From Nitrosopumilus sp. (lineage in GTDB: Archaea > Thermoproteota > Nitrososphaeria > Nitrososphaerales > Nitrosopumilaceae): a stretch of DNA of 64,000 bases. The stretch's first letter is position 1. The number at the start of each line of letters is the position of its first letter. The notes beneath the pieces were generated by a model. It was not told the origin of the DNA and made no database searches. It was given only the letters and a program-made list of their open reading frames with translations. Location: assembly GCA_965207075.1 (NCBI GenBank), contig CBDBLO010000002.1:1760001-1824000 (forward strand), given 5' to 3'. Positions 1-14,133 of this stretch are shown here, piece by piece. Both the position numbers and the translations under genes were made by a program.

Positions 1-1
1 A

Positions 2-814
2 AAGGAGACGGCCTCGCTTGTCAAGTATGACAAGGAGATCACCACGTTGGAATCGGCCATCGCAAGCGCGCCAGCAGACGACGAGATCGGGCCGCTCGTT
101 TCAAGGGTGGCAGAACTGAACTCGCAGCGGGGAGCGTTGCAGGAGGAGATGAACCACATGGAAGAGAAGATATCCAGCAACAGGGCCCTGCTGCAACATA
201 TCGACACGAAGATGCGCGACCTAGTATCAAGGGCGTACAAGGGCAAGAAGACAAAGGAGCAGATACGCCTCACGCACGAGGTGCAAGAGGTGTTGGAGGA
301 GTTCACAGACAGGCTGAGAGTCAAAAAGATACGACTCCTTGAGCAATATCTGCTTGACGCGACCGGAATCCTGCTGCACAAGAAGAACCTGATTCACCGG
401 ATAGGCATAGACTCAAAGTCGTTTGAGATTACCATATACGACCGGGACGGCAAGATCAAGCCAAAGGACATGCTCTCCGAGGGTGAAAAGCAGATGTTTG
501 CGACGTCCGTTTTGTGGGCTCTTGCAAAGACGTCCGGCAGGCCGCTGCCGTTTATGATCGACACGCCGCTTGCGAGGCTGGATGCCGAACACAGGGCAAG
601 TATTGTCGGGAGGTTCCTGCCTGCGGCATCACACCAGACCCTAGTGTTCTCCACAGACACAGAGATCGAGAAACCAGAGTACGATGCGATGTCTGCCCAC
701 ATGACAAAGTCATACCTGCTTGCGTTTGACGAGGATGCCGGCTCCACGTCGCCGCGCAACGGATACTTTTGGGACCTGAATACGAAGGAGGATGACAAAA
801 TTGCCGCGGTTTAG
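2..814 (+). CDS. dndD: DNA sulfur modification ATPase DndD (5'-truncated by window edge)
   Basis: Coiled coil followed by SMC/ABC signature LSEGEKQ and Walker B/D-loop FMIDTPLARLD..HR; overlaps dndE. Confidence 0.9.
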   Translation, partial: KETASLVKYDKEITTLESAIASAPADDEIGPLVSRVAELNSQRGALQEEMNHMEEKISSNRALLQHIDTKMRDLVSRAYKGKKTKEQIRLTHEVQEVLEEFTDRLRVKKIRLLEQYLLDATGILLHKKNLIHRIGIDSKSFEITIYDRDGKIKPKDMLSEGEKQMFATSVLWALAKTSGRPLPFMIDTPLARLDAEHRASIVGRFLPAASHQTLVFSTDTEIEKPEYDAMSAHMTKSYLLAFDEDAGSTSPRNGYFWDLNTKEDDKIAAV

Positions 815-1184
815 CAGACTGCGCATGAGCTACCGCTCGCAGAACCTGCTTGCGCAGCTAAAGTCTAGAACGGGCCTGACTCCAAACATTACCGGCAGGT
901 TTGCTATATGCATGTCCTTGAACAACCCGTCCGTGCCAAACCCCGACGAGTTTGACGAAAAGGGATCGGAGATACACCCCTCCGTGTTGTTTGGCGAGTA
1001 CGAGGACGTGTTCATGGCCCTGATGATACAGAGGCTCAACCGCGACAGACTGGACCACAAGACATACCTGAACCGCATGACGCGCGCCCACTTTAACAGG
1101 GGTGCGATAGCGCTGTTTGCCCGCATACACGACCTGGCAGATATTGAGAGGATCATAGACGAGGAGCGAAATGCCGCTGACTGA
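792..1184 (+). CDS. dndE: DNA sulfur modification protein DndE
   Basis: 130 aa; LKSRTGLTPNITGRFAICMSL and RAHFNRG match the DndE pattern; lies between dndD and a cysteine desulfurase. Confidence 0.9.
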   Translation: MTKLPRFSRLRMSYRSQNLLAQLKSRTGLTPNITGRFAICMSLNNPSVPNPDEFDEKGSEIHPSVLFGEYEDVFMALMIQRLNRDRLDHKTYLNRMTRAHFNRGAIALFARIHDLADIERIIDEERNAAD

Positions 1185-2352
1185 TGTCGCCCACCCGATA
1201 TACATGGATTACCACGCTACGACGCCGCTTGACCGACGCGTACTAGACGAGATGATGCCGTACTTTGCAGAAAAGTTTGGCAACGCGTCGAGCCTGGACC
1301 ATCCGTACGGACACGATGCATCTGTGGTGGTGGAGACTGCAAGGGAGCGGCTTGCCAGCCTGATAGGCGCTAGGCAGGGCCACGAGATCGTGTTTACGAG
1401 CGGCGCCACGGAATCTGACAATCTGGCATTAACAGGTGTTATGGAGGCGTATGCGGACAGGGGGAACCACATGATTACGTGCGTGACGGAGCACAAGGCG
1501 GTCCTTGACACCGCCAAGCATCTCGAATCTAGGGGGAAGAAGGTTACGTATCTGCCGGTCGACCGACACGGGCATGTCTCCACATCGGACATCAGGGACG
1601 CCATTACCGACAAGACCGTGCTGATATCCATAATGACGGCAAACAACGAGATCGGAACCATAGCAGACATCAAGACGATTGGAGATGTGGCGCATGATCA
1701 CAACGTGCTGTTCCATACGGACGCGGCCCAGGCAGTGGGGCACATTCCAGTCAACGTCCAAGACATGAACATCGACCTGATGTCGTTCTCATCGCACAAG
1801 ATGTGCGGACCAAAGGGGATAGGGGCCCTCTATATCAGGGCCATAAAGCCGAGGGTGCGGATCCTGCCGTCAATGTATGGAGGAGGCCAGGAACGTAGCA
1901 TGCGCCCCGGAACCCTAAACGTGCCAGGCATAGTCGGGTTTGGAAAGGCGGCCGAGATAGCGCAAAAAGAGATGCCAGATGAAAACAAGCGATTCCAGAA
2001 GTGGTCGGCCAAGATTATCGACGCCCTCTCAAAGACGGCCGGGGCGGTGCACAACGGCGACCCGGACAAAAGACTTCCTCACAACATCAGCCTCACGTTT
2101 CCGGGAATAGACGGCAAGGCCATCATCAATTCCATATCAGAACGTATCGCAATATCCGCAGGATCCGCATGCACCACCCAGACAGTCAAACCATCACACG
2201 TGCTGCTGGCGTTGGGCATGGGCACAGAAGACGCGCATTCGTCCATACGGATCGGACTTGGAAGATTCAACACCGAAGCAGAGGTGGGACATGTCATAGA
2301 CGCAATCTCGGGAGCGGTAAAGGATCTGAGGAGAATAAGCACACCTACATGA
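1171..2352 (+). CDS. dndA: Cysteine desulfurase DndA/IscS
   Basis: YMDYHATTP, FTSGATESDN, HTDAAQ, SSHK (PLP lysine), SAGSACT (catalytic Cys); overlaps dndE. Confidence 0.9.
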   Translation: MPLTDVAHPIYMDYHATTPLDRRVLDEMMPYFAEKFGNASSLDHPYGHDASVVVETARERLASLIGARQGHEIVFTSGATESDNLALTGVMEAYADRGNHMITCVTEHKAVLDTAKHLESRGKKVTYLPVDRHGHVSTSDIRDAITDKTVLISIMTANNEIGTIADIKTIGDVAHDHNVLFHTDAAQAVGHIPVNVQDMNIDLMSFSSHKMCGPKGIGALYIRAIKPRVRILPSMYGGGQERSMRPGTLNVPGIVGFGKAAEIAQKEMPDENKRFQKWSAKIIDALSKTAGAVHNGDPDKRLPHNISLTFPGIDGKAIINSISERIAISAGSACTTQTVKPSHVLLALGMGTEDAHSSIRIGLGRFNTEAEVGHVIDAISGAVKDLRRISTPT

Positions 2353-2562
2353 CGCGATCCAAGGATGTAAGGATGTCTTGAAATACGAATAGGCTGTTAC
2401 GTAAGTCACGTCACAATCCGGTCGTGTGTTTGGTCACAAGAGGCTCGCACGATACCGCTGTGATCCTTCACTGTATGATCTTGTTATTGCTGTGCCTTTG
2501 GGAGACTGAAATGAGAGAAAAATAGTAAAAAACAACGACCCATAGAACAAATTGATCGACAT

Positions 2563-3945
2563 ATGTCGCACACAAATGACCCCGCAAGCAGGTTCAACCA
2601 GCTTGTTGAAGAGGCGCTTGACCTGGTAAAGTCCCACCCAGACGGCATCTACATGAAGGATCTGAAGTCCCTGCTGAACGCCTCTGCTGTGAAGATGGAC
2701 GGCATTGCCACAAGATTCAGAAGAATGACCAACATGACCGTAACAGAGGTTCGGCGTGACGGACAGCGACCTGATCTTTTGTTCAAATACGCGAGGCTTC
2801 CAACTGAGGACACTTTCAAACCCTCTCCACATACAGACACCACTTCAGCGAGCAGGTTCAACCAGCTTGTTGAAGAGGCGCTTGACCTGGTAAAGTCCCA
2901 CCCAGACGGCATCTACATGAAGGATCTGAAGTCCCTGCTGAACGCCTCTGCTGTGAAGATGGACGGCATTGCCACAAGATTCAGAAGAATGACCAACATG
3001 ACCGTAACAGAGGTTCGGCGTGACGGACAGCGACCTGATCTTTTGTTCAAGTACGCGAAGCATCAAGCTGAGTGCATACCCGAAAGCCGTCCTGAGGTTG
3101 AACTTGCTGAAAACGCCATAGGCAAAGACATTCCGAGCACGCAAGTCAAAAATTCCTTAGAAGAGTTGGCACAACAGATGTTAGACGAGTATTATGCAAG
3201 TCAAAAAACCATAGACAAAGATCTGCAAAAGAAGCTTACTGTGGAATTTCTTCGCGTTGGCTCGGTTAATGCTATGGTAAAGAAATATCCAAACATACCA
3301 AAAGAGACGATCAAGATCCACATACGAACCCCCCTCCGTCTGCCAAAGAAACTGCGAGCGCTCAACGAAGACGGACTTCACACAGACCCGCAGATCTCAC
3401 TTCAGATTGCGCTTTTTGCTGTGAATCGGCATGACTGGGACAGCGATGATGGGGACACAGAAGATGTATTGCAAACCGCCGAAGGGATTTCAAGACATCT
3501 GAGTGTTGCCTCCCGTGACGGTGGAGATACACTACGAAGCCATACGCATCAAAAAGACATTGCGCCGCCAACAGCACCCATATCTACGCCCAAGGCGGTA
3601 TGGATTGCGGTTGCAACTCTGCATAAGGAACGTGGACTGAAGATGACGTTTTCAACCAACCAGATAATAGAAAGGATCAGGGAACAAAATCTGTGCAATG
3701 TATCTGATTCTACTATTGTGACACATGTTTCGTCTCACTGTGTTGCAAACAGTCCTGCCGCAATCGAATACCCACATCGAAAGACATACCGCGTTGGGCA
3801 CGGCATGTACAGACTCTACAAGAAAGGAGATCCTTGTCACCCTACAAGGGAATCAGGTTCAATCGCTCCTCTTCCGTTTCAGCTCCCACGCAAGTACAAG
3901 GATCTCAGGCGGTGGTACGACGAGGAATACTGTGCTCAAGCGTGA
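2563..3945 (+). CDS. Multi-domain putative DNA-binding protein (two tandem N-terminal wHTH-like repeats, C-terminal wHTH-like domain)
   Basis: 460-aa ORF; duplicated ~70-aa module; C-terminal 'FSTNQIIERI...STIVTHVSSHCVANSP...YRVGHGMYRLY' resembles a winged helix. Confidence 0.6.
   Translation: MSHTNDPASRFNQLVEEALDLVKSHPDGIYMKDLKSLLNASAVKMDGIATRFRRMTNMTVTEVRRDGQRPDLLFKYARLPTEDTFKPSPHTDTTSASRFNQLVEEALDLVKSHPDGIYMKDLKSLLNASAVKMDGIATRFRRMTNMTVTEVRRDGQRPDLLFKYAKHQAECIPESRPEVELAENAIGKDIPSTQVKNSLEELAQQMLDEYYASQKTIDKDLQKKLTVEFLRVGSVNAMVKKYPNIPKETIKIHIRTPLRLPKKLRALNEDGLHTDPQISLQIALFAVNRHDWDSDDGDTEDVLQTAEGISRHLSVASRDGGDTLRSHTHQKDIAPPTAPISTPKAVWIAVATLHKERGLKMTFSTNQIIERIREQNLCNVSDSTIVTHVSSHCVANSPAAIEYPHRKTYRVGHGMYRLYKKGDPCHPTRESGSIAPLPFQLPRKYKDLRRWYDEEYCAQA
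2587..3050 (+). repeat. Exact 200-bp direct repeat inside the ORF (2587-2786 = 2851-3050, 264-bp offset)
   Basis: Read directly from the sequence. Confidence 0.95.
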
Positions 3946-4994
3946 ACATTGTAAGGAGGCCTGTACTCGGTTTTGATGTTTGGAAACTTCTGTTCAATCA
4001 GCTTGGCAAGCTGCTTGGCATACGAGCTCCTGGAATAATCGGTGACTACGCATTTCGGGTTTACCGACTCAATGTACTGGTATATTTTGTTTATTGATGC
4101 GTGAGCCGCCAAGTTGAACCTGCACCCGCCTTCAAACGGGATTATCGGCGCATCGGACTTTGTAAATCTGTACTGGTCGACAATTATTTTGTGCAACGAA
4201 CGTAACTGTTCGTCAAGTATGCTGGAGGTGGAAAATATTACGCATTTTTTGCTGTTGTTTATCAGAGCCCAATAGTCGTGTGATCCGTATTCCACGATGT
4301 CACGGAACCTGTCCTTCTCGGCACGGTAGATACTAAGCAGTACTTTTTTTTGTCGCTCTTCCATGACAAATGCGATGTTACTGTCCATCTTCTTGCCGTA
4401 GCCAACCTCAAAGTGACGCACGATCTCTTGGAGTGTCCCAGAGTGCCCCTGGACGACTATCTGCGGGCGCGACTCCAAGTACTCCTCGACATACTCGAAC
4501 ATGCGATTCTTGACAGAATGCCTGTCTGTCTTTCCGTCATACCACGGATCCCCGTGGCTTGAGTCGATTACCAAGTGATCCGCCTGCCTGATCTGCACGT
4601 CCGGGTACCCGAAGTCTCCAGAGTACAGCATGGTTTTCCCGTCCGACTCGACGTATATCTGAGAAGAACCGGGTATGTGGTTTGCTTTTAGCAGCCTCAG
4701 AGTTCCGGCATCAAACTTGTACTCCGTGTCATAGTCCTGTGGAACCCACTGCTCCCTGTACCTCATCCCGGGATGTAGCGCGTTTATGCCTTCGAAGGTT
4801 ATTGGGTGTATTATGAGCACGTTGTATGATGCTATGCATGACGGGATACTTCTTATGTGATCGTCGTGAAAGTGAGAAAACGCGCCAATCAGCATTCCCT
4901 CCATGTATCCGTCGCACGATACTCCGTCAAGCCGGATGGTACAGTTTCTTGCAGAGTTGTCGTTGCAGACAACATCTATGACCCGCTCATTCAA
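3936..4994 (-). CDS. MBL-fold beta-CASP family nuclease
   Basis: SHFHDDH (HxHxDH), ANHIPGS, YSGDF and C-terminal AAHAS motifs; probable TTG start overlaps the upstream stop. Confidence 0.8.
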   Translation of the reverse strand: MNERVIDVVCNDNSARNCTIRLDGVSCDGYMEGMLIGAFSHFHDDHIRSIPSCIASYNVLIIHPITFEGINALHPGMRYREQWVPQDYDTEYKFDAGTLRLLKANHIPGSSQIYVESDGKTMLYSGDFGYPDVQIRQADHLVIDSSHGDPWYDGKTDRHSVKNRMFEYVEEYLESRPQIVVQGHSGTLQEIVRHFEVGYGKKMDSNIAFVMEERQKKVLLSIYRAEKDRFRDIVEYGSHDYWALINNSKKCVIFSTSSILDEQLRSLHKIIVDQYRFTKSDAPIIPFEGGCRFNLAAHASINKIYQYIESVNPKCVVTDYSRSSYAKQLAKLIEQKFPNIKTEYRPPYNVHA

Positions 4995-5772
4995 TCCTGC
5001 TCTCCAAAAACCCATCCAGAAACTTTGTGTATGACGAACCCTTTTTGTATTGGTGCTCGTAGAACGGTCCATATGCATCCTCGTCCATGGATATTGCCAT
5101 GACGGACTTGCCAACGTTGATGTCGTAGAATTCACCTCCCAAACCGCTCCGCAGCATGGCAAGTAGCTTTTCCCCATAGTCTGGGTTTGACTCTATGAAT
5201 CGGCGCAGTCTGTCATGGACCTCGACTACAATCATGTGGGTCACTACGGTCACCGGTTTTAGCTGGAGAACCTTCTCTATACACTCCCTTATGGATAGAT
5301 CCGGATTTTCCTTGCGCCATTTCTTTATTCGTTTAATGTCCTCCTTGCCGAGGATCCGTCTTTTGTTCTTGGAACTCAGTATGGACTGTATGATTAAGTC
5401 TTGATCCTCCGGAGTCATGGTTGAGAGCTGTGATATTGTCGAGAAGGGAATGAGCGGATACTCGTCAGTTGACCACCCCGCCATCTCTCTGCTTTTTGGT
5501 GACACCTTGAGCAGGTTTAGAAACGAGGTTATCTGAGACGTGTCACGTGGCTTGTACATATTTGACATGTCCTTCTGCTTGCCTAGGTTCAACCTCTCGG
5601 CAACCTTGTCTAGACTCTCGCCTTCCTCATCTATGAGGCGCTGGATGTACTCTGCACATTGAACTGGTGACAGTGGGCGCGTTCTGCCAGAACCCAACCC
5701 CTGCTGCCCCACACTGTTTAAGAGCTTGGAGTATGTTTGTACATCCATCACAAGCTTGCTTAATTCAATCAC
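4987..5772 (-). CDS. ParB-like HTH protein lacking the N-terminal CTPase domain
   Basis: LSPVQCAEYIQRLIDEEGESLDKVAERLNL..SQITSFLNLLKV parallels the ParB/Spo0J HTH region. Confidence 0.55.
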   Translation of the reverse strand: MIELSKLVMDVQTYSKLLNSVGQQGLGSGRTRPLSPVQCAEYIQRLIDEEGESLDKVAERLNLGKQKDMSNMYKPRDTSQITSFLNLLKVSPKSREMAGWSTDEYPLIPFSTISQLSTMTPEDQDLIIQSILSSKNKRRILGKEDIKRIKKWRKENPDLSIRECIEKVLQLKPVTVVTHMIVVEVHDRLRRFIESNPDYGEKLLAMLRSGLGGEFYDINVGKSVMAISMDEDAYGPFYEHQYKKGSSYTKFLDGFLESRIE

Positions 5773-6619
5773 CTATCTGGGTATAATCCCTTTCCACGCC
5801 TTCTACAACGTACTGGGTCGCGCGCGCCTTTTCGGTGTCGCCGCTGGACTCTGAGACCTTTTGGAGCTTTTCGGCAGTCTCTGTGGACAGATCAATATTC
5901 ATCTTTGTCTTGAGTTTCTGTCTCTTTGCTGCGCGCGCCTCCATGTCGCCTATGCTGCCTCCGCGCGCGGCTTCTGCGGCAAGGTCTGCAGGTTCAATCT
6001 CAGGTCTTGCCATCGCCTTTGCCATCTCCAACACGCGGTCTTCAGGGACCGAACCGTTTTTTGTATACTGTAGCGCGTCAACTGCACGAAGGGCGGCATT
6101 CTCTGCTTTCTTTGGGTTGTGGTGAATCTCGCCCTCCTGGATTGCCGTCTTTAGTGTTTCGGGAAGTCTTGCGAGCCGGACGTACTTGTCTACCATCCGC
6201 TTGCTGATGCCAAACTCCTGCCGCACCATCTCATAGTCGCCGTATACGTTGTAAAGATCCGTTACCGCCTTTATCAGATCCGGGTTGGTCATGGGAAGCT
6301 GCGTGATGTTCTCTGCGAGGGAGAGCGCCTTCTTTTTCTCATCGGTCTCTGGTTCTGGTATTACCTTGCACTGGATCTTGTCAAATCCTTCCTCGGGATA
6401 CTTGTCGTTGAGGTAGTGGTGCGCGTTCAGTCTTCTCTGTCCAGTAAGGATCACATAGCAGGATTGTCCCGAATCATAATACGCGGCAATTGGCTGCAAC
6501 AATCCGTTTGCCCTGATGTTTTCTGCCAAGTCTTCTATTCCCTGATCGATGTCGTGAATGCGCACGTTGTGCTTTTGAACCTTGATGTTATCTAACGAGA
6601 TATCCTTGAATTCGGCCAT
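5765..6619 (-). CDS. ParB/Srx N-terminal domain protein with HTH and possible C-terminal RHH
   Basis: IEDLAENIRANGLLQPI, ILTGQRRLNA, SLAENITQLPM; start estimated at MAEFKDI. Confidence 0.85.
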   Translation of the reverse strand: MAEFKDISLDNIKVQKHNVRIHDIDQGIEDLAENIRANGLLQPIAAYYDSGQSCYVILTGQRRLNAHHYLNDKYPEEGFDKIQCKVIPEPETDEKKKALSLAENITQLPMTNPDLIKAVTDLYNVYGDYEMVRQEFGISKRMVDKYVRLARLPETLKTAIQEGEIHHNPKKAENAALRAVDALQYTKNGSVPEDRVLEMAKAMARPEIEPADLAAEAARGGSIGDMEARAAKRQKLKTKMNIDLSTETAEKLQKVSESSGDTEKARATQYVVEGVERDYTQIGD

Positions 6620-6931
6620 TGTAAACGAACGGGGGTTTACAAATAAAAGCATTTTCTTGAAGATTGCGTAACCGTTCGATTCCTCCCAAAGTTTAGGCAC
6701 GAATTTCATAATCTGGCTTCTCTCAGGCATAAGGGTTGAGTGGTTACCAGATTGCCATGTCTGGATTGCAACAATTCCCCCTCCGCGCCTCACTCCCTTG
6801 TTGACACGTGGGCTCCTACTGTACCATTGTCCCCCTAGATGCAAATGGGGCAGAAAGGAAGTAGTTGCTCACGTACGTGAGTCTCCAGTCTGACTCCCGT
6901 ATGAACTACCGCGTTCACCATGGATTAAGGT

Positions 6932-7708
6932 TTAGCCCAAGATTATCTCGCATGCTACGAGTCCATACGATAGAACCACCTTGTGCTTTTTTTGTATGGT
7001 GCCGATCAGGCTCTTTTTTTCTTCTTCAAGGGCATCCATCTCGTCTGCCACTTGAAAGCGGAATTCGCGCGCCTTGTCAGAGTCGACGGATCCCCTGTCT
7101 TTGCGGTTTATGGATTCGTCGAGCTCACGTACGCGAAGATCATACTTTTCTGTAAACAATCGTACATCGTCGCCGAATCTCTGGTTTGCATCGCGTAGGA
7201 ATGCAAGGGACGCACCATCATGTCGTGTTTGCAATTCCTTTATGGCTGCACTATACGTTCTTGTGACTTCATCCGGACTCATCCAATCCAGCGAATGCGA
7301 GGCGCCATCATGATCTGAGATGCCTGCATCGGATCTTGTAGCCAACTCCACATCCACATGATCCAATGCGAGCATGTCTGACCGGCCCGAGAAGCGGATA
7401 AAGAAATGGTAGCGTATTGTGGCATTACTGTTACCGTTGGCCAAATTTCTTACTTTCACCGGGCCCTTGCCTGTGCAGATCTCGATAATCTGTGACAGAA
7501 TTCTGTTGCCCGGTGCCACTAACTCATAATCATGCCTTGATGCCGCATCACGATCGAACACGATACACAGCTCCCATGCTCTAAATGTGTGTCGATAGGA
7601 TTCTGGGACGCGTATCACGTAGGCCTCGTCGTCCGTGTTTACAATGTCCGCGTTGACTCCATTAAAGAACCCTAGGACAAGATCTCGTATGTCTTCTTGC
7701 ATGTTCAT
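6932..7708 (-). CDS. Hypothetical protein, YqhG-like partner of the SNF2 helicase
   Basis: ATGA overlap with the helicase; 'CIVFDRD..YELVAPGNRILSQI' and a C-terminal coiled coil; the pairing recalls Bacillus yqhH-yqhG. Confidence 0.5.
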   Translation of the reverse strand: MNMQEDIRDLVLGFFNGVNADIVNTDDEAYVIRVPESYRHTFRAWELCIVFDRDAASRHDYELVAPGNRILSQIIEICTGKGPVKVRNLANGNSNATIRYHFFIRFSGRSDMLALDHVDVELATRSDAGISDHDGASHSLDWMSPDEVTRTYSAAIKELQTRHDGASLAFLRDANQRFGDDVRLFTEKYDLRVRELDESINRKDRGSVDSDKAREFRFQVADEMDALEEEKKSLIGTIQKKHKVVLSYGLVACEIILG

Positions 7709-9471
7709 GACGCTTTCTCCTTTAGTACGGACAGGTCAAAGTTTCTAAACACGCCGGCGTTAAAATCCTGTATTGCATCGGCCGCTCTTTCTTTTTGGGC
7801 GTTCCAGTCGTCTCCTAGCGCAGAGAATCTGTTTCTCTGTTCCTGTTCGTTTGCCACGTCCATGTATTCTGTGAACCACGTACGCGGAGAGCCCCCCGCC
7901 CACGAGTCCTCAAACATGAGATCCATGTCGCCAAGCGCCATCCTGAATAGGTTGATCTTCATGTATAGCAGTTCAAGTATGTACGCCTCAATCGTGCCCG
8001 AGAGCGCGAGGTTGAATATGTGGACGTTGTCTTTCTGGCCTATCCTGTGAACTCGCCCTATCCTCTGTTCCACACGCATCGGGTTCCACGGCAGGTCGTA
8101 GTTTACGATATTGTGACAGAACTGAAAGTTCTGGCCTTCCCCACCCGCGCTTGTAGAGACCATGACACATGCGTCGTTCTTGAAGCTGGTTACAGATTCC
8201 CGCTTCTCTTCCGGGCTCATCCTACCGTTGAACAGCGTCACGGAATGTCCATTTTTTTGCAAATGCTCGGCGATATAATCTTGCGTAGCGTAAAACTCTG
8301 TGAATATCAGAAACTTTGATCTGCTGTTACCGATTATTCCCTGCAGTTCGGACAGCTTGGAGTCTTCCCGGATTGCAGACGCAGTTGACATGAGCTTCCG
8401 GTATATCTCCTCGGAGATCAGTCCGTTGCCTTTCATCTTGTAGAGAGCTCTCTTTGATGCCGCCGTGCTGCTTGATGCCAGTCTCTGATAAATCATCAGA
8501 GCAAGCGTATCGCCGCCAGCCTTGTACTGCGTCCTGACAATGTCTGTTATTGCATTATACAGACTGGATTCGTAATGGCGGGGAATGAGAATCCTTGTGT
8601 GAGGGATCCTGTCGGTGAATTTTATGTATCTTCTTGCTTCGTTGCGGGTTGTGCGTATGACGAATTTAGACAGGATTCTCTGCAGCTCGTCTCGCATTAA
8701 AGGCCGAATCTTTCTTGCTGCCGTGTCTGCGACATATTTGCTGCGAAACTGCGCCCACGTCCCAAGACATCCTGGGCGCAACAGCTCGATCAGATTGTAC
8801 ATCTCCTCGAGGTTGTTCTGAATGGGAGTGGCGGTGAGCAACAGTAGATTGCGCTTTGGAAGGCCTCGTACCAGCCTGTGCTTGTTCGTCGCTGCGTTTT
8901 TCATACTGTGGGCTTCGTCGACTATTACCATATCCCAGTACGTGGAGTGTAGCGGCACCGACTGTCTTGGATATATTGCAGAAGAATGAGACATCAGCAA
9001 AAGGTTATGGGATTGTATGTCTTGGGATTTGGAATCGTCGCGGTGTATAACAAAGTCCAGGTCAAACTTGCTTGACATCTCGTCCCGCCACTGGGGCAGA
9101 AGTGACGGGGGCGCAAGAATGAGTATGTTCTTGGCAAGTCCGGTGACTAGGAATTCCTTGATCAGTATGCCGGCTTCGACCGTTTTTCCCAGTCCTACCT
9201 CGTCCGCAAGTATGCCGGATCCACCAAGCTCGTTTTTGACCTTCTGTGCTGCTAGGATCTGGTGATCAAAGACGCTCACGTTTTCGCTTGTTTTGATTGA
9301 CTCTGCAATGGACAGCTCCTGCTCTCGCAGGTGGAGATGCAGATCGTACGCCTTTAGCGTGAGTGTTAAGAATTCTGGGTTTTGTGTCATACTGGTGCGT
9401 AGCCTGTCCTTTATGCCAAACTTGTCTGGAAATATAGTTCTGACATCTTCAATGTGCGGCGTTTCATTCAT
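7705..9471 (-). CDS. SNF2-family helicase (YqhH-like)
   Basis: LADEVGLGKT, DEAH, LTATPIQN, GGEGQNFQ, YDLPWNPMRVEQRIGRVHRIGQ. Confidence 0.92.
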   Translation of the reverse strand: MNETPHIEDVRTIFPDKFGIKDRLRTSMTQNPEFLTLTLKAYDLHLHLREQELSIAESIKTSENVSVFDHQILAAQKVKNELGGSGILADEVGLGKTVEAGILIKEFLVTGLAKNILILAPPSLLPQWRDEMSSKFDLDFVIHRDDSKSQDIQSHNLLLMSHSSAIYPRQSVPLHSTYWDMVIVDEAHSMKNAATNKHRLVRGLPKRNLLLLTATPIQNNLEEMYNLIELLRPGCLGTWAQFRSKYVADTAARKIRPLMRDELQRILSKFVIRTTRNEARRYIKFTDRIPHTRILIPRHYESSLYNAITDIVRTQYKAGGDTLALMIYQRLASSSTAASKRALYKMKGNGLISEEIYRKLMSTASAIREDSKLSELQGIIGNSRSKFLIFTEFYATQDYIAEHLQKNGHSVTLFNGRMSPEEKRESVTSFKNDACVMVSTSAGGEGQNFQFCHNIVNYDLPWNPMRVEQRIGRVHRIGQKDNVHIFNLALSGTIEAYILELLYMKINLFRMALGDMDLMFEDSWAGGSPRTWFTEYMDVANEQEQRNRFSALGDDWNAQKERAADAIQDFNAGVFRNFDLSVLKEKAS

Positions 9472-9928
9472 TAATTATACATCACAAACGTGCTATCTTA
9501 TACATTTGGGTAACGACATAGTATGGACCCAAGCCGTCTCAAACTCACATCTAGAAGCAAACACGGCCCTGTTGTTTCGCGCCCAAGACAACAGACGCCT
9601 GAATTCGTACCAAAAATAATACACTCACAATCACTCCACGTGATGTGATGCTCGTTGGGTAACAGAAAGAAGTACATAAAATATCCGGAATGCAATAGTC
9701 TTGGAGAAATCATACTAAAAATATATCGAAACAGAAGGCAAGACAATTACGCAAATGTTTGAGAACAAAAGAAACGACATACATCTAGGCCGCGCCTACG
9801 TGTACCTCCTGCGGACGAAGACCACTGTCTTGTGAGAACGACAATTGATAGGCATTCGGTCACCAACTGTTAACACAGAATAATCAAAGGTTCAAAGAAT
9901 TTATTACAAACTAATCGAAAAGTGATAT

Positions 9929-10627
9929 ATGTTAAGTGACACTGAAGCAATATCTTTGTCAAAATCACTATACACCATATTAAAAGTTGAAAAGTGTTTT
10001 ACAAAAAATGATTTTATAGAACGTTATGGAAATCAACTAATACGGATTGAGAAGCAATTCAACAATTTAAATCGTAAACTTGCAATTGTACGTTGCCACA
10101 TAGAAGAATACCGACAGCTACATAATGAAAAGACTCCGAATGAGCCTCAAATGACTCAATCGGACGTTTTTATTGAATTGACTACATTGTATTGTAGTTT
10201 TGGTTTAGCACACTATGAACTCTTGAAACGGTTTTTCATTGCAACATTAGATTTAGAACATTTGAGCGCAATAGCAAAAACTAAGATAAGAAAACCTCCC
10301 ACATTTGGTGGGATTATTAATACATTCAAAGGTTTGCCAAATTATAATGATAAAATGGCCGAAATGTTAGATAAGGATTTTCGTAATGCTTTGGCGCATG
10401 ATAGCTGGTACTTGGGAAGCAACGAAATGAAATATCTCGTAAATGATAAATTAGTTCAAATTCCATTCCTGAAAATCCCACAAAAAATCAAAATCATAGG
10501 AAGAGCATATACAACAATTTCAGAGTGTTATACTATGGATTTTTTCCCTGAGATAGTGGACGCATATAATAAGGGATTGAAAAATGAAATTCAGAAAATT
10601 ACCCCATTATTTGGAATGAACGATTAA
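9929..10627 (+). CDS. AT-rich hypothetical protein with HEPN-like Rx4H motif
   Basis: FRNALAH near the C-terminus, preceded by PTFGGII; markedly low GC. Confidence 0.55.
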   Translation: MLSDTEAISLSKSLYTILKVEKCFTKNDFIERYGNQLIRIEKQFNNLNRKLAIVRCHIEEYRQLHNEKTPNEPQMTQSDVFIELTTLYCSFGLAHYELLKRFFIATLDLEHLSAIAKTKIRKPPTFGGIINTFKGLPNYNDKMAEMLDKDFRNALAHDSWYLGSNEMKYLVNDKLVQIPFLKIPQKIKIIGRAYTTISECYTMDFFPEIVDAYNKGLKNEIQKITPLFGMND

Positions 10628-10735
10628 TAATTTTTGCAATCGATTTGCGGGGTTTATTTATGGTATTACATACCTCGTTCAGTAACTGCGTTAAAACAAA
10701 AACAATGGATGTCTTAACACTAAGTCCTCTTTCTA

Positions 10736-13700
10736 TTAGTACTTTTTTGTCAGCTTTTTGTATGCTGCATGTGAGAGCGCCAACAAGATCGTTGCAATTC
10801 CTATAACCTGCCACTGCGGTTCATCGGCCCGCGATGCGTTAGACGTATGTAGCGTGCCAACTGCGCCGCGAGCCGCCCCACCCCACTCGTTGTACAGTGT
10901 GATCTCCAAGGCAGTGTCGGGTTGAAACAACACAGTGCATCCTATGGGACATGGTTGTTCCAAACGCGTGCCGTTTATCTCCACATGTTTGACTATACCA
11001 AAGTTTTCAGGTTGTTCTATGATTATCCTACCGGACTCCCTTGTGACGTCTACTGGGTTGTCTTTTTGGGCGTTAATGCGGATCGTTTCATTCCCTCCAA
11101 ACGAGTAGTACTTGTGGTGAATGACGTGCTCGTCGGAGCCGTTTATTGTGATGTACAGAGACATCGGAGCCAGTACACTTAGCCCCAGATCGTACGGAGC
11201 GGTGAGGCGGAGCGCCTCGGGATGCTCTGCCAGCTCGTGGATGTCCGTCAGCCTGCCGCTGAACGGCAGACCTGTGGCGTTCTGGATGGCAATATCATCA
11301 AAGTGTACTGACGTACGCAGTATTGTGACGTTGATTACGCCGTCGGATGTGCGCCACTCCTGTGTCATTGGGTGCGTATCGTTCAGGATAGTCTGTGCTA
11401 TAGTCGAATCACCTGTATCCCACGTTATCTTGTCGCGTATGTAGTCCGCCAAGTATTCGGCCCCGAGCTCCGCATATGGCATCACCCGCAACGTGATGTC
11501 ATCCGTAGTCTGGACGGCGCCTGTGTGGTCGACTGACTGTACCGTGACATGTTTTGTAAACGGCATTTCCGGATAGCGCATCGTCGTCTCGTACAGCAGA
11601 GTGTTCCTGCTTGCAAAGTCGTGGCTGTAGACCTGCAGGTGCGAGGTGACGTTCTCGTTGACTGCCGCCTTCGCAACCGTAGCGGCACTTGCTGACTCCC
11701 CCGTTGCAGTCTGATTATACACAGAGAACACCCACTCGGACACGGGCCACTCAAACAGAACTGTGCCGTGCCCGTTCTGCACAAACATGGCAGTCTGCGT
11801 GTCCTGCACGTGCTCCAGCGCGGTGTGGCCGGGCGAGGAATTGCGGCCCGTGCCGAGCACATGGTCCTGTCCAAAGTGGTTGTAGGTGGATGGGTCGTGT
11901 CCCCCTCCCGTTCCGTTCCACCCGTTGATGAACGAGCGGCGCATCGGGTGCAGTACATCGTCCTGCCAGCTCCCGCCGTACCTCATGGCGATCCCGTGCC
12001 GATCGTCAAATGCGTACTCGCGGGCGTCCGCAAGCACGGGATACGAATACACCGTTTCGTAGGACGGCTCGTACGGCACGACCTCGGCCTCGGTGGAGTT
12101 CACCGCGCCTGCGACCTGTTTGCCGAGGTTGTAGGCGGTCATGTTGTAGACGAATTCATAGGTGTCGAAACCGTGCGACATGCCGGTAGCCCGGACAGTC
12201 AGTCCGTCGCCGTTGCCAAACCACAGACTTTCGGCCAACCACGGCGGCGAGTCTACTTTGACCACATGTTCGCACGGCGGTACTGCCGCATGCGGGGTGG
12301 GCGTGGCAGTGCCGTTCCCGTCAGCTGGCGGCGGCGGTGGTGACGGAGGGCAATCAAACTCGTCAATCACCGGGAGTGTAACGGGGGGCAGGCGGTGCGT
12401 CTCGAAGCTGACGTGCGCGCTGCGCTCGTCCTTCCACTTCCACGACGGCTCGTGCCGCACATATATCGGATCCTCATAGTAGTAGGTGCCGTCCAGATTC
12501 TTGGCGTCATATCCCTCTACATGGTGCAGCGGTGGCTTTGTCAGTATGATTAGCAGCTCGCCGTCCTGCAGCGGCGGTCCCGCGTCCCTACTCACCTCCT
12601 CCAGCCCCCTCACCGGTATGTCGTTCGCGTAATGGTGCGGCGTCCAGTAGTGGCCGGACGCCGTAAGTTCCAGTTTCGCGCCGTCCGTCGCGGGCCCTGC
12701 GCACGCGTCGCCGCCGGCCGGCGCCTCGTACGCCTCTGGGTGCATGCCGGGCGGCGCCGTGTCTATGGTAAACGCATACGAGCGGTTTGACAGCAGGTGC
12801 GCCCAGGAACCCGCCGGATACCCGGGTGGTGGCGGTGGCCCCGCGCGGCCTCTGTCCCCATCCCGTATATCGTACGGCGGCAGCCGCTTGTGCCACGCGT
12901 CCAGCACGGCGCCGTACGCGCCGACTACATCCGAGACGCACACGCCTCGTTCGGGCCGCACCTCGGCCGTCCCGTACACGCAGCCGGATCTCGCGCCCAG
13001 CCCGTCGCACGCCTCCCGCACGCGCTCCTCGAACCACTCCGCACTCCCGGGGTCGGCCGGCGTCCTGGTGAGGTGGGCATGCGGCGCGTCCGCGCCGGTA
13101 GTGATCCCCCAGCCGTGCGTCGTGGTGTAGAATATGCCGCCGCCGTAGGGCCTCATGTGCGGAGGGGCACTGGGCAGGCCGGCCGTGGTGTCGTTCAGCT
13201 TCTGGTCCTCCGGGATGATGCCGCCCTTGATGTTGCCTCCCTTGTATTTGGCCCACGGGCAGTACGGCAGGTCCTGCGCGTGCTTCGACCTTGCGTCAAT
13301 CCTGTCGGTCCACCACCCCCAGGCCGGCTCGCCCCCGTACCCCTTGGACTTGAGCGTCTTTTCAAACTCCGTCAGCCTGTCCGTATCCTTTGTGAGGAAT
13401 ATCCTGTCGTACACGACCCACTTGTCATACCTCCACGTACGGGACTCGCCGGGCTTTGCGAACATCTCCTTGCACGAGGCCACCGCCCTGCCCGCGTAAA
13501 AGTCCGTGCTGGCCAAGAACGCCACGGACGGGTCGAGGTCCCTGTGCTCGAGGGGCGCGCGGCGGTCCTCGCGGCCGTTGGAGTCGACCCACACTGCGCG
13601 GTGGTCCAGCTGCAGGCGGCTCGTCTCGAGGAGCGGGGCGCGGACGGAGCAGCCGGCGGGGTCGTCTGACCGCTCGGACCACCGGAACACGTAGTAGAAC

Positions 13701-13873
13701 GCGTCCCCCGGGTAGTACGTGTTATCTGGGTTCTGCCGCGGCTCTCCCAGATATGTAACTGGATACGTCGAGCCGCTCACGTGAAATATACAGTCGGTGG
13801 CGGAGTGGTCCGCCCAGACGACTGCATCCTGTGCGGCGCACGATGCCGCGATGACTGCGGCCACCATTATCAT
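10736..13873 (-). CDS. Large secreted/membrane-anchored protein
   Basis: >1000-aa ORF; hydrophobic N-terminal signal, C-terminal TM segment followed by KKLTKKY; YYPGD / YYYED repeat motifs; start estimated. Confidence 0.7.
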   Translation of the reverse strand: MIMVAAVIAASCAAQDAVVWADHSATDCIFHVSGSTYPVTYLGEPRQNPDNTYYPGDAFYYVFRWSERSDDPAGCSVRAPLLETSRLQLDHRAVWVDSNGREDRRAPLEHRDLDPSVAFLASTDFYAGRAVASCKEMFAKPGESRTWRYDKWVVYDRIFLTKDTDRLTEFEKTLKSKGYGGEPAWGWWTDRIDARSKHAQDLPYCPWAKYKGGNIKGGIIPEDQKLNDTTAGLPSAPPHMRPYGGGIFYTTTHGWGITTGADAPHAHLTRTPADPGSAEWFEERVREACDGLGARSGCVYGTAEVRPERGVCVSDVVGAYGAVLDAWHKRLPPYDIRDGDRGRAGPPPPPGYPAGSWAHLLSNRSYAFTIDTAPPGMHPEAYEAPAGGDACAGPATDGAKLELTASGHYWTPHHYANDIPVRGLEEVSRDAGPPLQDGELLIILTKPPLHHVEGYDAKNLDGTYYYEDPIYVRHEPSWKWKDERSAHVSFETHRLPPVTLPVIDEFDCPPSPPPPPADGNGTATPTPHAAVPPCEHVVKVDSPPWLAESLWFGNGDGLTVRATGMSHGFDTYEFVYNMTAYNLGKQVAGAVNSTEAEVVPYEPSYETVYSYPVLADAREYAFDDRHGIAMRYGGSWQDDVLHPMRRSFINGWNGTGGGHDPSTYNHFGQDHVLGTGRNSSPGHTALEHVQDTQTAMFVQNGHGTVLFEWPVSEWVFSVYNQTATGESASAATVAKAAVNENVTSHLQVYSHDFASRNTLLYETTMRYPEMPFTKHVTVQSVDHTGAVQTTDDITLRVMPYAELGAEYLADYIRDKITWDTGDSTIAQTILNDTHPMTQEWRTSDGVINVTILRTSVHFDDIAIQNATGLPFSGRLTDIHELAEHPEALRLTAPYDLGLSVLAPMSLYITINGSDEHVIHHKYYSFGGNETIRINAQKDNPVDVTRESGRIIIEQPENFGIVKHVEINGTRLEQPCPIGCTVLFQPDTALEITLYNEWGGAARGAVGTLHTSNASRADEPQWQVIGIATILLALSHAAYKKLTKKY

Positions 13874-14133
13874 GATGACGGCATGGCGCAGGCCGCGCGG
13901 CGCGCGCTGTGCGGCATGCCCCGCCCCGCCGGTGCGCGGCATGCCCGTCACCACCGGCCCCGCTTCCCGGCAAGGAAGGACAGGCGCAGCCGTCCGGCCC
14001 GGCCGCCGTCTGCCGCCACCGATGCACCTGCGCGGACCGCGTCCATATCTGCCGTTTTTTCGCACCCCCATCATCGCCACCACCACCGGCAACCGCTTTT
14101 AAGCAGGATGCGCGCCCTGCCCCCAGGTGCGCG

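Follow-up and report, generated by a model that had tools for sequence, protein, structure and literature searches.

A ParB-like protein, a beta-CASP nuclease and a split RapA-like motor beside the dnd genes of a Nitrosopumilus genome: a candidate phosphorothioate-coupled restriction module

The stretch of DNA analyzed in this study (the window) is a 64,000-nucleotide (nt) segment of the Nitrosopumilus sp. assembly GCA_965207075.1, contig CBDBLO010000002.1, forward-strand positions 1,760,001 to 1,824,000 (G000:C2:1760001-1824000). The genes reported here occupy its first 9.5 kilobases (kb) and comprise the end of a dnd cluster, predicted to place phosphorothioate (PT) marks on DNA, together with a set of neighboring genes that are candidate parts of a PT-coupled restriction module (Table 1). 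An initial annotation of the sequence had named dndD, dndE and dndA, a winged-helix-turn-helix repeat gene, an SNF2 helicase with a partner, a ParB protein, a ParB-like helix-turn-helix (HTH) protein and a beta-CASP nuclease; all are present where it placed them, as judged from the open reading frames (ORFs) and their translations.

Table 1. Genes and features of the window (positions counted from its first nucleotide; aa, amino acids; bp, base pairs)
Feature	Position	Strand	Basis or remark
dndD, C-terminal 270 codons	2..814	+	PADLOC DndD 2.7e-78; start upstream of window
dndE	792..1184	+	Pfam DndE 3.3e-22; PADLOC DndE 4.9e-41; TIGR03184 72.5 bits, above cut-off
dndA, cysteine desulfurase	1171..2352	+	Aminotran_5 2e-85; PADLOC DndA 5.1e-159, SspA 4.5e-159
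460-aa DNA-binding protein	2563..3945	+	Pfam DUF7669 4e-13
In-frame tandem duplication, 264 bp	2587..3072	+	Tandem Repeats Finder (TRF): period 264, 1.8 copies, 97% matches
Beta-CASP metallo-nuclease, 352 aa, predicted effector	3936..4994	-	Longest ORF up to 5177
p261, ParB-HTH-like, 261 aa	4987..5772	-	ESM Atlas and hhalign, weak
ParB/Noc-like protein with HTH, likely 284 aa	5765..6619	-	Longest ORF up to 6844
p258, 258 aa, putative split-off RapA-type C-terminal domain	6932..7708	-	AlphaFold2 (AF2) model and Foldseek
Swi2/Snf2 ATPase core, 588 aa	7705..9471	-	SNF2-rel_dom 1.7e-37; Helicase_C 1.1e-22

The genes for the SNF2 protein, p258, the ParB-like protein, p261 and the nuclease form, in this order, a minus-strand operon that converges on the dnd cluster, with the gene for the 460-aa winged-helix protein lying between the two. 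Several adjacent genes share a few nucleotides: 4 nt between the end of SNF2 and p258, 8 nt between ParB and p261 and also, once the nuclease start is corrected, between p261 and the nuclease, and, in tail-to-tail orientation, 10 nt between the nuclease gene and that of the 460-aa protein. The gap between p258 and ParB measures from about 90 to 310 nt, depending on which ParB start holds. The ATG at 6619 is the most likely start of the ParB gene because the orthologues have the corresponding length, and the TTG at 4994 that of the nuclease gene because the orthologous frame of L004, a locus from the same genus, has a stop upstream. The dndB and dndC genes (1.6e-122 and 4.3e-178, respectively) and the remainder of dndD lie directly upstream of the window on the same strand, making the writer a complete dndBCDEA cluster; the full-length dndD ORF, seen in L003, encodes a protein of about 681 aa that matches DndD at 7e-172. 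DndB, DndC, DndD, DndE and the cysteine desulfurase all match their own profiles, and their genes are contiguous on one strand. Neither dndFGH nor pbeABCD was found in this upstream region.

As predicted from its sequence, the nuclease is a compact beta-CASP enzyme. An alignment of 10 orthologues shows the HxHxDH motif and further His and Asp columns to be invariant. The family profile matches 3af5 at 3.9e-13, followed by CPSF73, INTS11, SNM1A and Apollo, and it also finds archaeal CPSF/FttA and Artemis; its matches to CPSF73, INTS11 and archaeal CPSF extend over an N-terminal part (41-254) and a C-terminal part (291-348). The protein shares with these enzymes the metallo-beta-lactamase (MBL) motifs and the C-terminal beta-CASP region, but it is minimal in size, lacks KH or other RNA-binding extensions and belongs to a distinct family. 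This family comprises at least 150 clusters at 90% identity, with generic annotation only. A weak match to the ligase-associated repair exonuclease family and a marginal one to DrmC (E 0.0011, 16.6 bits) were also recorded.

The ParB-like protein matches Pfam ParB_N at 3.4e-07 and TIGR00180 at 7.1e-15, the latter with 55.2 bits, just below the cut-off of 58.45. Its profile finds the Noc structure 7ol9 at 3.7e-17 as well as ParB/Spo0J, the Noc/ParB structures covering profile positions 6-179, and the sequence GQRR is invariant across 10 orthologues. An N-terminal ParB/Srx domain, a conserved arginine box and an HTH thus place the protein, on sequence grounds, in the ParB/Noc clamp family. The CTP-dependent clamps of this family have the same N-terminal domain, with an arginine-rich GxxRR box, followed by an HTH; in contrast to them, the protein of the window is found without ParA, in a context other than segregation, with a nuclease and a putative truncated paralogue encoded alongside. 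When the protein was compared with DndB by hhalign, only the GQxR stretch aligned (probability 2%).

The truncated paralogue is p261. Its window copy has no Pfam match. A p261 paralogue matches HTH_ParB at 7.8e-4; p261 itself lies closest to HTH_ParB clusters in the ESM Atlas, at 0.92 and as no more than a lead, and hhalign gives a weak match to the HTH and C-terminus of the ParB-like protein (E 7.7e-4, probability 25%). It is likely that p261 is a ParB-HTH-like paralogue devoid of the N-terminal nucleoside triphosphatase (NTPase) domain. Prediction of a complex of ParB, nuclease and p261, with p261 as the partner, gave a score of 0.00, which weighs neither for nor against binding.

The helicase appears to be one half of a RapA-like motor. 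Scanning the 588-aa protein against Pfam returned only SNF2-rel_dom, Helicase_C, ResIII and DEAD; PLD and nuclease domains are absent, as the initial annotation had noted for the former. The protein contains GLGKT, DEAH and QRIGRVHRIGQ, which we take to be the SNF2 motifs. The PADLOC profiles BrxHI (5.8e-76) and DrmD (3.4e-72) are matched; in the NCBIfam scan, the DrmD and DpdE matches fall below their cut-offs (for DrmD, 243 bits against 950). Residues 61-511 match positions 148-625 of the RapA profile NF003426 (6.5e-57, 193 bits against a cut-off of 576), and only 60 residues precede the core, so that the N-terminal domains of RapA are absent. A model of p258 (AF2) has a predicted local distance difference test score (pLDDT) of 80.4. 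The only strong Foldseek matches of this model are four Escherichia coli RapA entries (E 4e-07 to 1e-06, probability 1.00), the best being 8t0l_F at 4.4e-07. In a VIA comparison, residues 1-250 of the model align with RapA 709-961 over 187-196 residues at Z 8.2-9.3, middling values for a helical protein, with a root-mean-square deviation of about 12 that is high because the domains hinge; a wide VIA search with the same model was dominated by helical hairpins and uninformative. From its model, p258 looks like the C-terminal domain of RapA encoded as a separate gene, which would account for the helicase "partner" of the initial annotation and suggests that the SNF2 core and p258 represent a single RapA/DrmD/BrxHI-type protein split in two genes.

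DrmD of DISARM, BrxHI of BREX and DpdE of Dpd are the closest relatives of the ATPase core and, like the motor of the window, accompany a DNA-modification module. The latter differs in being split, with the RapA C-terminal fold in p258, in lacking the part of RapA that precedes profile position 148 and in scoring far under the cut-offs. No DrmA, DrmB, methylase, PglZ or DpdA match was found among the neighboring proteins scanned, the sole DrmC match being the marginal one of the nuclease. DISARM, Dpd and BREX type 4 were rejected as identities for the locus because their defining partners are missing (PADLOC).

The 460-aa protein begins with two winged-helix units and ends in another winged helix (DUF7669), with a helical part between them; no catalytic domain is seen. 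In the AF2 model of residues 190-460 (pLDDT 88.4), the C-terminal domain compares with the winged helices of ORC/Cdc6 and histone H5 at Z 6-6.8; Foldseek found nothing at E <= 0.001 with the DUF7669 model. The helical middle cross-matches the HTH region of ParB in tblastn. The repeat that the initial annotation had seen in this gene proved to be the in-frame duplication of Table 1. The orthologue in L004 is 372 aa long, that is 88 aa shorter, the equivalent of one 264-bp unit; the duplication, which doubles the N-terminal winged-helix unit, is recent. In relatives of the protein the N-terminal DNA-binding part is a different one, Mrr_N or PF18780 for example. Neither the 460-aa protein nor p258 or p261 is covered by a PADLOC v2 model.

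Four kinds of restriction partner are known in PT-based immunity, namely DndFGH, PbeABCD, SspE/DndI and SspFGH, and many dnd clusters still appear "solitary". In agreement with the initial annotation, the effector genes of the window match neither DndF, DndG and DndH nor PbeA-D (PADLOC and NCBIfam scans of 11 proteins). TIGR03237 and TIGR03238 were found in none of five genomes including the host, a weak negative as 14 control genomes were silent too. No second DndD/PbeC homologue exists in the host genome (95% complete), where tblastn with DndD finds dndD only. DndFGH resembles the module of the window in being a multi-gene restriction partner adjoining dndBCDE(A), with winged-helix binders, a motor and a nuclease. 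The motor of DndFGH is, however, of the HerA/FtsK type and its nuclease a PD-(D/E)xK restriction endonuclease (REase), as opposed to a Swi2/Snf2 motor and a beta-CASP nuclease here. PbeABCD is likewise archaeal and dnd-adjacent and includes an SF2 helicase, but a PLD domain is part of PbeA and PbeC is paralogous to DndD, two traits without equivalent in the helicase and genome studied here, and nothing in PbeABCD corresponds to the ParB proteins or the beta-CASP nuclease.

Closer in logic are DndI and SspE, in whose systems a PT writer is paired with a ParB-superfamily NTPase and a nuclease. In published work, the DUF262 NTPase of these proteins, a member of the ParB superfamily, senses PT, is stimulated by it and controls DNA binding or the HNH nuclease; DndB, also of the ParB superfamily, is a known PT regulator. 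In IscS-DndBCDE-DndI and SspABCD-SspE the effector is a single polypeptide made of DUF262 (DGQQR) and HNH. The window encodes instead a separate ParB/Noc-type protein (GQRR, HTH), a ParB-HTH paralogue and a beta-CASP nuclease, with no HNH or DUF262 match among them.

The main text of a reappraisal of Dnd systems (PMC10853773) gives HKD, HNH, REase, URI, HEPN and PIN as the nucleases near dnd genes and contains no mention of MBL or CASP. The initial annotation had suggested that the module may be undescribed, and no paper on it turned up in full-text searches or in passages of the Dnd reappraisal and of the Pbe and sponge-thaumarchaeon papers; the supplementary neighborhood tables of PMC10853773 and a 2017 paper on Nitrosomarinus catalina were outside this coverage. 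ARMADA and the BREX survey are unrelated to the module, and "DUF7669" is mentioned in no paper searched. The abstract of the Nitrosomarinus catalina paper (Ahlgren et al., on a marine thaumarchaeon) reportedly mentions an adjacent putative restriction operon.

The association with PT genes was assessed in 401 sampled genomes of the archaeal family to which the window belongs. DndC was found in 64 of them, the nuclease family in 25 and the p258 profile in 15. Nine of these 15 encode a full-length p258, and all nine carry the SNF2-p258-ParB-p261-nuclease operon beside dndBCDEA (L004 and G729, from the same genus as the window, being counted as one genome). The full operon is convergent with the dnd genes in G000, G729 and G673, divergent in G648 and G714, and collinear, right after dndA, in G293, G688, G644 and G720. 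The nuclease loci were examined in 22 of the 25 genomes, leaving out G419, G466 and G452, where they are fragments on short contigs or weak matches. At 20 of these 22 loci dnd genes are directly adjacent, again in convergent, divergent and collinear layouts, and identity to the nuclease of the window ranges from 87% down to about 25-30%. In many cases the ParB, p261 and nuclease genes (the trio) directly follow dndA on the same strand with short gaps. Genes of the Mrr, GmrSD and Schlafen types are not conserved beside the trio.

In 11 of the 20 dnd-adjacent loci only the ParB-p261-nuclease trio is present, mostly followed by a gene named p454, and the SNF2, p258 and winged-helix genes are missing. 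The trio is therefore the core, and SNF2, p258 and the winged-helix gene, which co-vary, are an accessory layer whose members travel together. The initial annotation had treated the five operon genes as one PT-coupled module: the coupling to PT genes stood, the single unit did not. A further indication of modularity comes from G692, whose DndC is 94% identical to that of the window, whereas its trio is only 30-34% identical and SNF2 is absent; writer and effector modules have therefore been exchanged independently.

The p454 protein (about 450 aa; L010 17484-18848, with homologues in L036, L047-L072 and L076-L086) follows the nuclease in most of the variants, is absent from loci of the window type and belongs to no Pfam family. 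The ESM Atlas places it in unnamed clusters only, plus a weak HEPN_Apea lead at 0.88. A relationship to the DUF7669 protein was considered and rejected, as hhalign shows none. Two genomes hold more than one dnd cluster: in G644 (L037+L038, C1) two dndBCDEA clusters are separated by 16 kb, the full module accompanying one of them and the trio by itself the other, and G673 (L031+L032, C1) has a second dndCDEA near the first. Two metagenome contigs have an additional, short ParB-like ORF (L051 4918-5502; L059 4754-5554) between dndA and SNF2; it may be the remnant of a trio-only ancestor that gained SNF2 and p258 by insertion.

Two distant paralogous trios (24-29% identity) are found away from dnd genes, in L089 and L090. 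In L089 (G648) a full SspABCD cluster (SspB 2.2e-89, SspC 2.9e-296, SspD 8.4e-108), with an SspA-like desulfurase upstream, has the trio placed between its sspC and sspD genes; the interrupting set, within L089 2316-13322 (G648:C1), consists of ParB-like, p261-like and beta-CASP genes and a gene for a 341-aa protein. The presence of the trio beside two unrelated PT writers, Dnd and Ssp, is the strongest argument that it reads or uses PT. Three proteins are encoded past the ssp cluster: one with HATPase_c_3 (MzaB-like), a PbeA-like helicase and one of 323 aa that matches DrmC weakly (E 2.1e-4).

Scanning metagenomes with the profile of the nuclease yielded 29 loci or contigs with a GC content of 0.28-0.37. 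Nine contigs reach upstream of SNF2, and seven of them have dndA there on the same strand; the other two have a GmrSD-like gene instead. The p258 family is rare. A word-indexed search gave 10 clusters, 86 representatives among 1.84 billion matched at E <= 0.001, and in the phylum sample p258 was found in 4 of 401 genomes, all from the family of the window, with none in 344 genomes elsewhere. A metagenome scan with the p258 alignment returned nothing among 96 candidate stretches, and a search of public genome contigs one true locus, L004; a second match, L005, spanning just 40 residues, was discarded.

Seven genomes of the family harbor a sister pair, made of an SNF2 protein (48-49% identity) and a 578-638-aa protein with a p258-like N-terminus, with no dndB-E in the stretch fetched (L043 7568-11941; L044 6630-11979; also L012, L013, L041, L042 and L045). 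An Mrr_cat nuclease gene is located downstream, directly in L043 and after a 194-aa ORF in L044, and in L041 a divergent Mrr-like gene adjoins SNF2. The pair looks like a separate candidate defense system.

From the gene content, the intact catalytic motifs and the conserved linkage to two kinds of PT writer we infer a defense function, PT sensing, contacts between the proteins and an order of events. The reading we favor, with a probability of about 0.6, is that the locus is a PT-based system of self/non-self discrimination, whose restriction side, a new module coupled to PT, operates in the manner of SspE or DndI and probably destroys DNA that lacks the PT mark. DndBCDEA would mark host DNA with PT. 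The core would be composed of a ParB/Noc-like, NTP-binding DNA clamp, p261 and the compact beta-CASP nuclease; a RapA-like Swi2/Snf2 motor, split into ATPase core and p258, and the multi-winged-helix DNA binder would be accessory. In the first step the ParB-superfamily NTPase would bind DNA. Its nucleotide cycle would respond to PT, so that the protein leaves marked self DNA or stays inactive on it; on unmarked DNA it would persist and license the beta-CASP nuclease. Directed by the winged-helix protein, the SNF2 motor would translocate along the DNA or clear it, thereby extending the scanning. p261 is possibly a non-catalytic partner of the ParB sensor or clamp, and the split motor with its winged-helix protein could be an optional scanning and clearing device, comparable to DrmD or BrxH in modification-based systems. 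DndI and SspE being the closest working analogues, the scheme amounts to their logic spread over separate proteins. The data thus support the initial annotation in its interpretation of these genes as a new PT-coupled module; its scan-and-license mechanism is retained here as a proposal.

Several observations weigh against this reading. Of 64 DndC-positive genomes, 44 have no adjacent trio, indicating that the writer does not need it. In G504 the trio is found beside a dndB fragment only, and G716 has a truncated nuclease and no dnd. Beta-CASP enzymes include RNases as well as DNA-repair nucleases, so that the family does not fix the substrate of the nuclease. PT sensing by the ParB-like protein is pure analogy, since the protein resembles ParB/Noc rather than DUF262 and its match to DndB is confined to GQxR; a DUF262 protein encoded beside dndB (see below) could be the PT-sensing effector instead. 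Finally, the paralogous trio of L090 is surrounded by genes for a PbeA-like helicase, Schlafen and HEPN, with no PT gene within the 18 kb covered. Such a setting would be expected if the trio belonged to an independent defense system that merely shares islands with dnd, recognizes invaders in some other way and requires no PT mark. The presence of Mrr, Schlafen and GmrSD_N genes in the island of the window fits this idea too, as does the fact that the sister pair accompanies Mrr nucleases without dnd. Against it stand the adjacency to dnd at 20 of 22 loci, kept through several layouts and deep divergence, the frequent position of the trio right behind dndA, the embedding of one trio within an ssp cluster and the lack of conservation of Mrr, GmrSD and Schlafen genes next to it. 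On balance we consider an independent system unlikely.

A slightly better case can be made for an accessory of PT maintenance or repair, in which the ParB proteins would load at PT sites or regulate them and the SNM1-like nuclease would process nicks or oxidized PT lesions on host DNA. The matches of the nuclease profile to SNM1A, Apollo and Artemis and, weakly, to the ligase-associated repair exonucleases point in this direction, the known role of DndB as a PT regulator offers a precedent within the ParB superfamily, and the linkage extends to both Dnd and Ssp writers. Such a role sits poorly with the absence of the module from two thirds of the dnd clusters of the family, its exchange independently of the writer as in G692, the closeness of SNF2 to the defense helicases BrxHI, DrmD and DpdE and the defense-island setting, and we give it a minor share of the probability.

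The initial annotation had described the block as lower in GC content than the host genes, and this holds: values are 0.48-0.56 over positions 1-9500 and reach 0.60-0.70 beyond about position 11500. The genome averages 0.603 (standard deviation 0.042, 5-kb windows), compared to 0.471 for a 20-kb island that begins about 9 kb upstream of the window. The host genome matches RF01959 at 1459 bits, as expected of an archaeon, and carries an archaeal amoA gene and no mcrA, identifying the host as an ammonia oxidizer. The foreign base composition, together with Noc and ParB/Spo0J being the best solved relatives of the ParB-like protein, raised the question of a partition or maintenance cassette of a dnd-carrying mobile element, with ParB serving segregation and the nuclease addiction. 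We regard this as very improbable. No match to ParA or integrase families was found among the ORFs scanned in and beside the island (some small ORFs were not scanned), no tRNA gene was found near it, tblastn with the nuclease gave no match in 72,556 plasmids and the trio can sit within an ssp operon.

At the right edge of the island, a 232-aa ORF of 36% GC (window 9929-10627) has no family match, and in L004 its position is taken by an unrelated 589-aa ORF. It is followed by a gene for an 1118-aa host protein without Pfam family (window 10736-14092), whose two paralogues in the same genome show 77% and 54% identity. Of the three T2SSE-ATPase copies, two are situated about 9-10 kb away from a gene of this 1118-aa protein family; in the third pair the distance is about 57 kb. 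Within the island, beyond the Mrr gene, a fragment corresponding to residues 26-125 of the flanking T2SSE-type ATPase was identified (G000:C2:1752642-1753008; L003 ~10642-11008). An insertion may have left this fragment behind as a partial duplication of its target.

Beyond dndB the island contains genes for an Mrr-type nuclease, a DUF2196 and Schlafen/AlbA_2 protein and a 584-aa DUF262/GmrSD_N protein, the last divergent from dndB (L003 9551-13698; G000:C2:1751551-1755698). The 584-aa protein matches GmrSD_N/DUF262 at 8.6e-18 and, DndI and SspE being DUF262 proteins, could be a DndI-like PT sensor; were it the true PT-sensing effector, akin to DndI or SspE, the trio would have some other role. 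In G409, L047 and L048, too, the locus is flanked by GmrSD-like genes. Yet the protein shows no DUF1524/HNH domain, no PADLOC match to SspE and no relative in the PDB by sequence, and of the 19 related genomes with dnd beside the trio, 17 have no GmrSD match in the stretches fetched. We therefore see this as an improbable account of the locus.

If the PT-coupled restriction module is real, it adds to PT-based immunity a further restriction partner, built from parts that are new to this role: a canonical ParB-type NTPase, a beta-CASP nuclease and a split RapA-like motor. It would also account for the way in which part of the PT-modifying ammonia-oxidizing archaea, about one third of the dnd-positive genomes sampled, restrict foreign DNA. 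The clear gene set and the conserved motifs make the hypothesis directly testable, and the linkage to both Dnd and Ssp writers makes the trio a natural test case for the reading of a backbone mark. So far, ParB-type nucleotide-switch clamps have been described in chromosome segregation and nucleoid occlusion. A bolder proposal, which we put forward tentatively and hold to be rather doubtful in its entirety, is that a clamp of this type has become an immune scanner of Dnd and Ssp sulfur marks that passes unmarked DNA to a beta-CASP nuclease, with the split RapA-like motor as an optional booster, and that such scanners are common in marine ammonia-oxidizing archaea, which are among the most abundant archaea of the ocean.

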